53,549 bases of DNA from Aplysia californica (lineage: Eukaryota). The notes under the pieces are model-generated. The model had not been told where the DNA came from. It saw only the letters and a program-made list of their open reading frames with translations, and made no database searches. Of this stretch, positions 50,291 through 51,841 are shown piece after piece. Position numbers and translations under genes: made by a program. Position 1 is the stretch's first letter; every line of letters starts with the position of its first letter. The stretch is taken from positions 41,747 through 95,295 of the forward strand of contig NW_004798321.1 in assembly GCF_000002075.1 (NCBI RefSeq), in the 5' to 3' direction.

Positions 50291-51841
50291 ATGTTGCGGA
50301 CACCGGAATTTGCACATTTAGTGGAGATTTTGGAGTTACGAACGAGAGAGCTGGAGGAGGGGATAGAGAGTCAGGCCCATGACTCTGGCAGTAACAATGA
50401 CAGTGCTCTCCGTTCGTCAAACGTGGATAAAGCTAGCAGTGACAGTGTGATTCATACATCAACTGCCAAGATAGCCAGTAACGGCACAATGTCTCATACA
50501 ACGACCACGGACAAGAACGTGGCGCCCACGGAAACAGCACCTTCCTCCAATCCCCGGAAACGGAGACGTCAACGAAAGCACGGAGATGCTAAACGACGCG
50601 TCACGTCAGAGGTGTGTACTGGCGGTGTGTTCCCTGCACCCAACACATATGTACCCTCCTGTGATGTCATATGTCCTACTACAACGACAAACAACACAGG
50701 TGTAGCCTTGTGTGACGTCATGTGTCCTACCAAAATTACAAACAACACGGGTGTAGCCTCGTGTGACGTCACGTCTCCTACTACAACGACAAACAACACG
50801 TGCGGTGACTATGCGCGTGCGGAAACATCCCCCACCCACTCGAAAAAAGGAAAGAGGAGACAGAGAAAGCGACACACGAATGGCGGGAAGTTCTTTGAGC
50901 TGTACGAGGCGACTGGAGAGCCACTGGGTGACGGGTCCTTCGGTACAGTGTCCACCTACAGACACAAGGAAACAGGGCGGGAACACGCCGTGAAGGTCAT
51001 CAAGAACTGTCGGGGGGAGACACTCCAGTTAGTCATGAGCGAGATCGAAGTCTGTCAGAGGTACCGGAACTGCGACAACATCCTCAACTTCCAGGACTTC
51101 TATACGTCAGGAGATACGTTTTTCCTCGTCTTTGACAAGATGGCGGGCGGCGACCTGAGCCATGTGTTTGAATCAACGCCATATCTAAGCGAGTCCCAGG
51201 CTTCACGAGTGACCGGCGCCGTGGCCCGAGCGCTCCTCACACTTCACAAAGATGGCGTGGCGCACCGAGACGTCAAGCCAGAGAACATCTTATGCCACGC
51301 CCCAGGGGAGATCAACCCAGTCGTCCTCTGCGACTTTGGCCTCGCGAGTGACCCCCCTTCTCGACGTGACCCCTCAGATTGGGACATGACCACCAAGCCC
51401 GCCCTGCTCAAGTCCGCCGTTGGCTGTCCGGAATACATGGCTCCGGAGATCGCCGGTTTGTTGTTGTTGCCCACGTCACGGAGAGCCACAGCGCCTTACT
51501 ACGACACGAGCTGCGACATGTGGAGCCTCGGGGTTCTCCTCTTTGAGATGCTGTTTGCCCGTCTGCCATTTCCCGGCGACTGTGGCAGGCACGGAGAGAC
51601 CACGGACCCCAGCTGTGGGGACTGCCACAAGAACGTGTTCCCAAAGGTGTGCCGCGGGGACTATGTCATCCCCAACACCCTCAGATCCGTGTCTGACGCC
51701 GCCCTGGATTTGATCCGGAACCTCCTCGTCCTTGACCCCCAGGCCCGTTATTCTGCCGGTGACGTCTTGAGGCATCCGTTTGTGACGTCACACAGGGACG
51801 ATGACGTCGCTGGAACCGACTGTCTAACGGCGTCCCCATGA
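50291..51841 (+). CDS. Intronless MAP kinase-interacting Ser/Thr kinase (MNK/MKNK)-like protein, copy 1
   Basis: 516 aa. Has a polybasic stretch then GKFFELY..TGE.LGDGSFG, AVK, alphaC Glu, HRDVKPENILC...INPV.LCDFG, EYMAPE, YD..CDMWSLG and the Cys-rich PF.G.CG...C..C insertion. The layout is colinear with MNK1/2. All catalytic residues are present. Confidence 0.9.
   Translation: MLRTPEFAHLVEILELRTRELEEGIESQAHDSGSNNDSALRSSNVDKASSDSVIHTSTAKIASNGTMSHTTTTDKNVAPTETAPSSNPRKRRRQRKHGDAKRRVTSEVCTGGVFPAPNTYVPSCDVICPTTTTNNTGVALCDVMCPTKITNNTGVASCDVTSPTTTTNNTCGDYARAETSPTHSKKGKRRQRKRHTNGGKFFELYEATGEPLGDGSFGTVSTYRHKETGREHAVKVIKNCRGETLQLVMSEIEVCQRYRNCDNILNFQDFYTSGDTFFLVFDKMAGGDLSHVFESTPYLSESQASRVTGAVARALLTLHKDGVAHRDVKPENILCHAPGEINPVVLCDFGLASDPPSRRDPSDWDMTTKPALLKSAVGCPEYMAPEIAGLLLLPTSRRATAPYYDTSCDMWSLGVLLFEMLFARLPFPGDCGRHGETTDPSCGDCHKNVFPKVCRGDYVIPNTLRSVSDAALDLIRNLLVLDPQARYSAGDVLRHPFVTSHRDDDVAGTDCLTASP

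Follow-up and report, generated by a model that had tools for sequence, protein, structure and literature searches.

A multicopy family of intronless MNK-derived kinases in Aplysia californica with altered regulatory motifs

The window analysed here, a 53,549-nucleotide stretch of the Aplysia californica genome, contains an intronless open reading frame (P0001, positions 50291–51841, + strand) that encodes a kinase derived from MNK. On balance, we read P0001 as a working kinase that no longer answers to ERK/p38 and is switched on through its activation-loop serine by another route. The family to which it belongs is, with high confidence, functional and retro-derived. Judged from its motifs, the P0001 copy is probably uncoupled from MAPK; a continuing need for T-loop phosphorylation is slightly favoured, and its main substrate would, with a modest preference, be something other than eIF4E. 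By descent P0001 is an MNK, but it fails four tests for defining motifs and ought not to be classed among the canonical MNKs.

The P0001 frame is uninterrupted and codes for 516 amino acids in a single exon. Its kinase domain (50915–51784; Pfam Pkinase, residues 209–498, E = 1.8e-54) contains a GxGxxG Gly-rich loop (50927–50944), an AVK motif (50987–50995), the alphaC Glu (51038–51049) and HRDVKPEN (51263–51286). Human MNK1 and MNK2 were its best solved relatives (E = 5e-58 to 1e-55, compared with only 3e-33 for RSK), and the alignment with them was colinear through the MNK Cys insert. An AlphaFold2 model showed a confident kinase fold (mean pLDDT 89) and matched CAMK-group structures in Foldseek, which indicates a CAMK-type fold and is silent on activity. 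The family-specific N-terminus contains a first basic cluster, RKRRRQRKH (50555–50581), that resembles a nuclear localisation signal and may act as one, followed by a Cys/Thr-rich linker built from 3.1 copies of a 51-bp in-frame tandem repeat (50641–50799) and by a polybasic patch, KKGKRRQRKRH (50843–50875), at the position of the eIF4G/importin-binding sequence of MNKs. Eight of ten residues in this patch are Lys or Arg, compared with seven in the parent Mnk. The palindrome TGACGTCA, which we take to be of the CRE type, occurs in the in-frame N-terminal repeats of several family loci (14 times in L002, 20 times in L003, 17 times in L008 and twice in the P0001 repeat) and may only reflect Cys-Asp-Val codons.

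To set the control motifs of P0001 against those of canonical MNKs, a control set of 120 proteins was assembled from a Haliotis-protein search (116 new matches plus 4 fetched earlier), of which 118 could be parsed. DFD, both S/T-P sites, a P+1 loop G[S/T] and an aromatic residue at APE+5 (Trp in 91, Phe in 27) were present in all 118, and the four-Cys insert in 117. In P0001, DFD is replaced by DFG (51332–51340), and the activation loop MTTKPALLKSAVGC (51386–51427) contains no S/T-P; Ser375 (51413–51415) stands at the position of MNK1 Thr214, where only the following Pro has been lost, and Cys379 (51425–51427), in the P+1 loop, replaces the Ser/Thr of the GT motif. The segment APEIAGLL (51440–51463), which comprises APE and the insert behind it, has Leu391 where MNKs have an aromatic residue (Phe in human, Trp in the parent), the Phe at APE+5 being the autoinhibitory residue of MNKs. 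The Zn-binding insert CGRH...CGDC (51581–51625) has changed from four Cys to Cys-x2-His...Cys-x2-Cys, and HPFV is followed by a tail of only 18 residues and the stop codon (51785–51841) with no LxxRR MAPK-docking motif, a strict pattern that was also missed in 49 of the 118 canonical proteins. Because all 118 canonical MNKs keep DFD, the S/T-P sites and the APE+5 aromatic residue, the deviations of P0001 are real and unusual and not chance variation. The first-pass annotation had thus correctly described the change to DFG, the loss of activation-loop Thr-Pro, the short end without a docking tail and the insert with three Cys and a His. Its statement that an autoinhibitory Phe had become Leu was right about the Leu and wrong about the ancestral residue, which is Trp in the parent and in most of the invertebrate control set. 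It had also credited P0001 with all catalytic residues: the Lys-Glu pair, HRD, DFG and APE are indeed there, but the GT-motif Ser/Thr is not.

A search of the Aplysia genome returned at least 28 matches, which resolved into 17 intact single-frame kinase genes including P0001, the second copy in the window, seven loci that are broken or partial, and a single exon from a canonical gene, in agreement with the earlier proposal that the gene had been amplified into a kinase family. Twelve family proteins match NCBI Aplysia californica proteins, 11 of them at 100% over their full length, and most are named 'MNK1-like'; the copies are therefore already annotated in RefSeq but are not set apart from true MNK. 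We found no published paper on this MNK-derived family, which a kinome table in a supplement could list. The three copies L014, L016 and L017, 99% alike, could be haplotypes or could stem from recent duplication.

All 17 intact copies have lost the third Asp of DFD (9 DFG, 8 DLG), the first TP site, the Phe/Trp at APE+5 (one has Tyr) and the LxxRR tail, and a translated search with the parent's last exon gave no match at 20 loci (best E = 0.23). Three copies (L011, L013 and L015) have long tails that are not MNK tails: a second, degenerate kinase segment, partly in frame, follows at their 3' ends, and the tails are therefore kinase N-termini that have been duplicated. Conversely, the catalytic Lys, alphaC Glu, HRD and APE were kept in 17/17 copies, and in an alignment of 42 sequences, 13 of them family members, the catalytic Lys, the alphaC Glu, the Asp, Lys and Asn of the HRD segment and the DFG Asp were invariant. 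The description of P0001 as stripped of every MNK control element did not hold: Ser or Thr is present at the MNK1 Thr214 position in every copy, as is the HRD Arg, and in seven copies the acceptor is still followed by Pro (Ser-Pro). The third Gly of the Gly-rich loop, which is Ala in the parent, is likewise found in all 17. Three Cys of the Zn insert are retained throughout, and in 16 copies the second Cys is replaced by a His two residues past the first Cys, which by its placement is likely a replacement zinc ligand. Other features are patchy: Gly-Cys, seen in the P0001 subclade, stands at the GT motif in seven copies including P0001, the remaining ten having G[S/T]; a polybasic patch with at least 7 Lys/Arg in 10 residues occurs in four copies (L001, L004, L007 and L009, P0001's copy among them); another basic cluster upstream of this patch is found in the P0001 subclade; and the substrate-contact Glu of HRDxKPEN varies across the family.

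The canonical parent gene was found at G000:C1774 (about 14.7–19.0 kb). It matches Aplysia Mnk (NP_001191613) and encodes DFD, KTPELLTP, APEVVDAW with Trp at APE+5, four Cys and an LAKRR tail. The part of the gene that was read has four GT-AG introns: two interrupt the kinase domain, one lies immediately upstream of it and one lies downstream. Since all 17 copies run unbroken across the parent's first three intron positions (after KKFS, AVK and WSLGII), we infer that the family arose by retroposition. The 350-nt 3' flanks showed neither a poly(A) remnant nor a target-site duplication; such traces are expected to erode at saturated dS, and it is the intron loss that carries this conclusion. Copies are paired in tandem on six contigs, and this, with the flanks that they share, shows later spread by DNA-level duplication; one reverse-transcribed Mnk copy thus likely founded the family and was later multiplied at the DNA level. 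The first-pass annotation, which had named a retroposed MNK and asked for copy number and an intron-containing parent, was borne out on these points.

The shared flanks are well seen in the window. An upstream block of 650 bases (49640–50290, + strand), likely comprising promoter and 5' leader, is common to six other subclade copies, and the 3' flank (51842–51990) is common to eight other subclade loci at 75–81% identity. In comparisons with L004, L005 and L007 the upstream block has a JC distance of 0.33–0.40 against a dS of 0.69–0.72 and has thus diverged about half as much as synonymous sites, suggesting that the promoter has been kept. A second tandem copy (52147–53549, + strand), consisting of the upstream block and an ORF from 52829, is open to the window end, and its remainder is N in the genome; it shares about 700 bases of upstream DNA with P0001 at 85% identity, and 68 residues of its kinase domain can be read before the N begins. 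Two related upstream segments lie at 47340–48102 and 48240–49000, positions 47965–48102 being equivalent to the start of the upstream block (92%) before running into N, and may represent a third copy or an assembly duplicate. A very high-copy repeat occupies 49504–49630, just upstream of the promoter block, and RNA reads from elsewhere in the genome, about 400 in each of two runs, have poly(A) behind 49544.

In a site-mixture tree of 26 rows that included seven family members, the family was monophyletic (100/100) and nested within the heterobranch MNKs (100/100), with a stem of 1.13 changes per site compared with 0.02 for the parent branch. The same nesting was recovered, at lower support, under LG+F+G4 when outgroups were left out, and with four non-MNK CAMK-type outgroups the family stayed within the MNK clade (100/99), its place inside that clade not being fixed. 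The trees were built without MAPKAPK sequences. A FastTree analysis with one outgroup had put the family beside or outside all canonical MNKs, a placement that we attributed to long-branch attraction after the mixture-model trees. The placement outside the MNK clade that had been named as contrary evidence to an MNK origin was not obtained in the mixture-model trees.

According to PMC9059116 and PMC7312468, DFD gives MNKs an autoinhibited DFD-out state, which is released by ERK/p38 phosphorylation at T209/T214. In P0001 this brake would be weakened, and ERK/p38 would be able neither to dock nor to use a proline-directed site; Ser375 would be a site of autophosphorylation or a target of an upstream kinase other than a MAPK, and the two basic clusters together with the missing tail would make the protein nuclear, like the tail-less human MNK1b/2b. 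Because these are RD kinases and every one of the 17 copies has kept the T-loop acceptor across a saturated synonymous distance, the acceptor is most likely still used, and rewiring is accordingly favoured over constitutive activity; of the two terms in the first-pass annotation, 'rewired' is the better match to the data. The conserved T-loop Ser could also be structural and not a switch, and since Ser-Pro is kept in seven copies, 'MAPK-free' may not hold family-wide.

The idea that P0001 is a constitutively active, MAPK-independent eIF4E kinase, with the brake removed, eIF4G docking kept and no signal needed, is one that we regard as doubtful. Its DFG, its canonical Gly-rich loop and the loss of the aromatic residue would all favour an open state, and the predicted model lies nearer to active-type CaMKII and phosphorylase-kinase structures (rmsd 2–3 Å) than to MNK2 crystals (about 7 Å), a comparison to be read with the tendency of AlphaFold to return active kinase shapes in mind. 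The tail-less human MNK1b, described as having higher basal activity, offers a precedent, and the patch that P0001 keeps at the MNK position, with its 8 Lys/Arg in 10 residues, corresponds to the sequence reported to bind eIF4G and importin (both PMC7312468). Nevertheless, the phosphoacceptor is invariant, in human MNK1 the binding of eIF4G is reported to follow T-loop phosphorylation (PMC9059116), the substrate-contact Glu of HRDxKPEN differs between family members, only four of the 17 copies have a patch with at least 7 Lys/Arg, and the Gly-Cys change also calls for caution. Because of this patchiness, eIF4E would be a possible substrate for P0001 and is unlikely to be what the family as a whole is for; the earlier term 'eIF4E-type kinase' is overstated, since the polybasic eIF4G site that it calls for is present in P0001 but in few of the other copies.

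It is less likely still that P0001 has little or no kinase activity and is retained as a scaffold or competitor that occupies, for instance, eIF4G or a nuclear partner. The GT-motif Ser/Thr is described as hydrogen-bonding the catalytic Asp in Ser/Thr kinases (PMC3513839), and with Cys379 at this site, as with the Gly-Cys of its subclade in general, the activity of P0001 could be low; moreover, Aplysia Mnk is reported to lower cap-dependent translation in sensory neurons in a manner that needs eIF4G binding (PMC3760813), so that a paralog that only binds could act. Yet the invariance of the catalytic Lys, alphaC Glu, HRD Asp, Lys, Asn and DFG Asp across the 42 aligned sequences, the G[S/T] of ten copies and the third Gly of the Gly-rich loop in all 17 speak for catalysis, and a working, rewired kinase remains our preferred reading.

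Selection was estimated over the kinase domain with NG86, and only NG86 dN/dS values are reported. In comparisons with unsaturated paralogs dN/dS was 0.18–0.32, and for P0001 against the seven paralogs with dS below 0.9 or near 1.4 it was 0.20–0.32: with L002–L008, dN was 0.19–0.24, dS 0.69–0.85 and dN/dS 0.23–0.32, and with L009, L010 and L019 dN/dS was 0.20–0.29. Bootstrap 95% upper limits, obtained for the three pairs that were resampled, were 0.30–0.38. Other family pairs with measurable dS gave 0.11–0.60, several pairs being saturated, as was the comparison of P0001 with the parent Mnk (dS 2.7). Values this far below 1 mean that the family is not a set of pseudogenes, for which the first-pass annotation had expected a ratio near 1; the genes are fast-evolving but are maintained by purifying selection.

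Two raw polyA RNA runs from one study, of about 1.5 billion letters each, contained no reads on the P0001 ORF. Among the runs listed as containing this sequence, none is recorded as RNA. Contigs from three probable cDNA runs (X10, X11 and X13; run type unrecorded, three samples) covered 49601–50853 at about 99% identity. The main contig over this interval had a depth of 9–14, and the unique DNA in 42300–49400 was covered only by scattered pieces at a depth of about 3. Loose contig ends in X10, X11 and X13 showed an A-run followed by an adaptor-like string, presumably an oligo-dT cDNA primer, and for this reason the three runs were read as cDNA, their RNA nature and strand being deduced in this way. 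Two contigs end at the A-rich run 50843–50853 with 10–11 extra letters, which would fit internal priming on a sense transcript. The kinase domain had almost no contig cover in X10, X11, X13 and X4, a gap that proves nothing, internal priming being a possible cause. Two further runs, X1 and X8, behave as DNA, and X5–X7 were left out of the analysis. The 5' third of P0001 is thus likely transcribed, the full-length mRNA not being covered by these contigs, and P0001 is probably expressed in few tissues. That P0001 is a silent or decaying retro-pseudogene whose motifs were lost by drift, as the two polyA runs and the seven broken or partial loci might suggest, is very improbable given the open 516-codon frame, a dN/dS of 0.20–0.32 where even the nearest complete paralog stands at a dS of about 0.7 or more, the same changes fixed across copies with saturated synonymous sites, the conserved upstream block and the coverage of the 5' third by probable cDNA contigs from three samples.

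The closest known systems are human MNK1 and MNK2 (MKNK1/2; PDB 2HW6 and 2AC3) and Aplysia Mnk (NP_001191613, Q27SZ8), with which P0001 has in common the colinear CAMK-group domain, the Zn-binding insert, the post-APE insert and the polybasic patch, and from the last of which, the heterobranch gene, it descends directly. In contrast to these, P0001 lacks introns, TP sites, the APE+5 aromatic residue and the docking tail, it has DFG, a three-Cys-plus-His Zn site and a P+1-loop Gly-Cys, its N-terminus is long and repetitive, and it exists in at least 17 copies that evolve far faster. Retrocopy and tandem expansions of kinases such as mouse Smok and the nematode sperm kinases are likewise single-exon, fast-evolving and multi-copy, with birth and death of copies, and germline expression is typical of them; here the parent is an MNK. 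As described in PMC7312468, the human MNK1b and MNK2b forms, like P0001, have no MAPK-binding tail or export signal, keep the polybasic sequence and are nuclear, MNK1b having higher basal activity; they arise by splicing and leave the DFD kinase domain as it is, whereas here separate genes are concerned in which the catalytic domain is altered too. The Asp-to-Gly change itself has been engineered in MNK2 D228G (PDB 2AC5 and 2HW7), which is reported to take both DFG-in and DFG-out states (PMC3326643); in the Aplysia family the loss of this Asp is natural, fixed in 17/17 copies and joined with other losses.

At the junction of exon and intron 4 of the parent (G000:C1774, about 15995; L041), read-through into intron 4 stops in frame 17 residues after HPWT, which matches the 18-residue tail of the family. 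A b-type Mnk isoform may therefore exist and may have been the template for the family. Eight short tail-less MNK-like proteins from ENA/Logan (P0017, P0188, P0182, P0206, P0309/P0310, P0279, P0213 and P0043) have the Cys insert and an activation loop that is very short; in most of them DFD reads D[F/L]N. Those tested joined the family at 100/100, and an AU test rejected leaving four of them out (p = 1e-7); without Aplysia rows none of four sets was placed inside the heterobranch MNKs, so that long-branch attraction is possible. Either the subfamily would be older than Aplysia, or MNK deregulation would have arisen more than once. A genome search with P0182 revealed no further copies, and a profile search for members in other species returned the Aplysia copies, the two input proteins, one further MNK and then RSKs; the named members found were thus all from Aplysia, and as the search was swamped by RSKs this is no evidence of absence elsewhere. 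It is conceivable, though we consider it improbable, that a truncated b-type Mnk retrocopy founded an old, undescribed, MAPK-independent MNK subfamily that reaches beyond Aplysia and includes the grouped tail-less kinases, with P0001-like copies setting the phosphorylation of eIF4E or of nuclear MNK targets without ERK/p38; were this true, MAPK-independent MNKs would act in the main invertebrate memory model.

Lineage-specific kinase expansions are common in animals. The 17 natural variants provide test beds for which MNK features impose MAPK dependence, and they allow zinc binding by a three-Cys-plus-His insert and catalysis with a Gly-Cys P+1 loop to be asked about. Work on Aplysia Mnk in sensory neurons treats Mnk as one gene, and expressed paralogs could matter to it.

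Elsewhere in the window, 43285–44391 (+ strand) encodes a single-exon rhodopsin-type GPCR of 368 residues with weak matches to Srx/Srw chemoreceptors. A low-complexity open frame of 1821 residues without a Pfam match (21679–27144, – strand) and a neighbouring long frame (28017–29183, – strand) are probably large exons of one gene, and an exon at 10432–11040 (+ strand) encodes a small-GTPase-like N-terminus with a Roc match below the Pfam cut-off.
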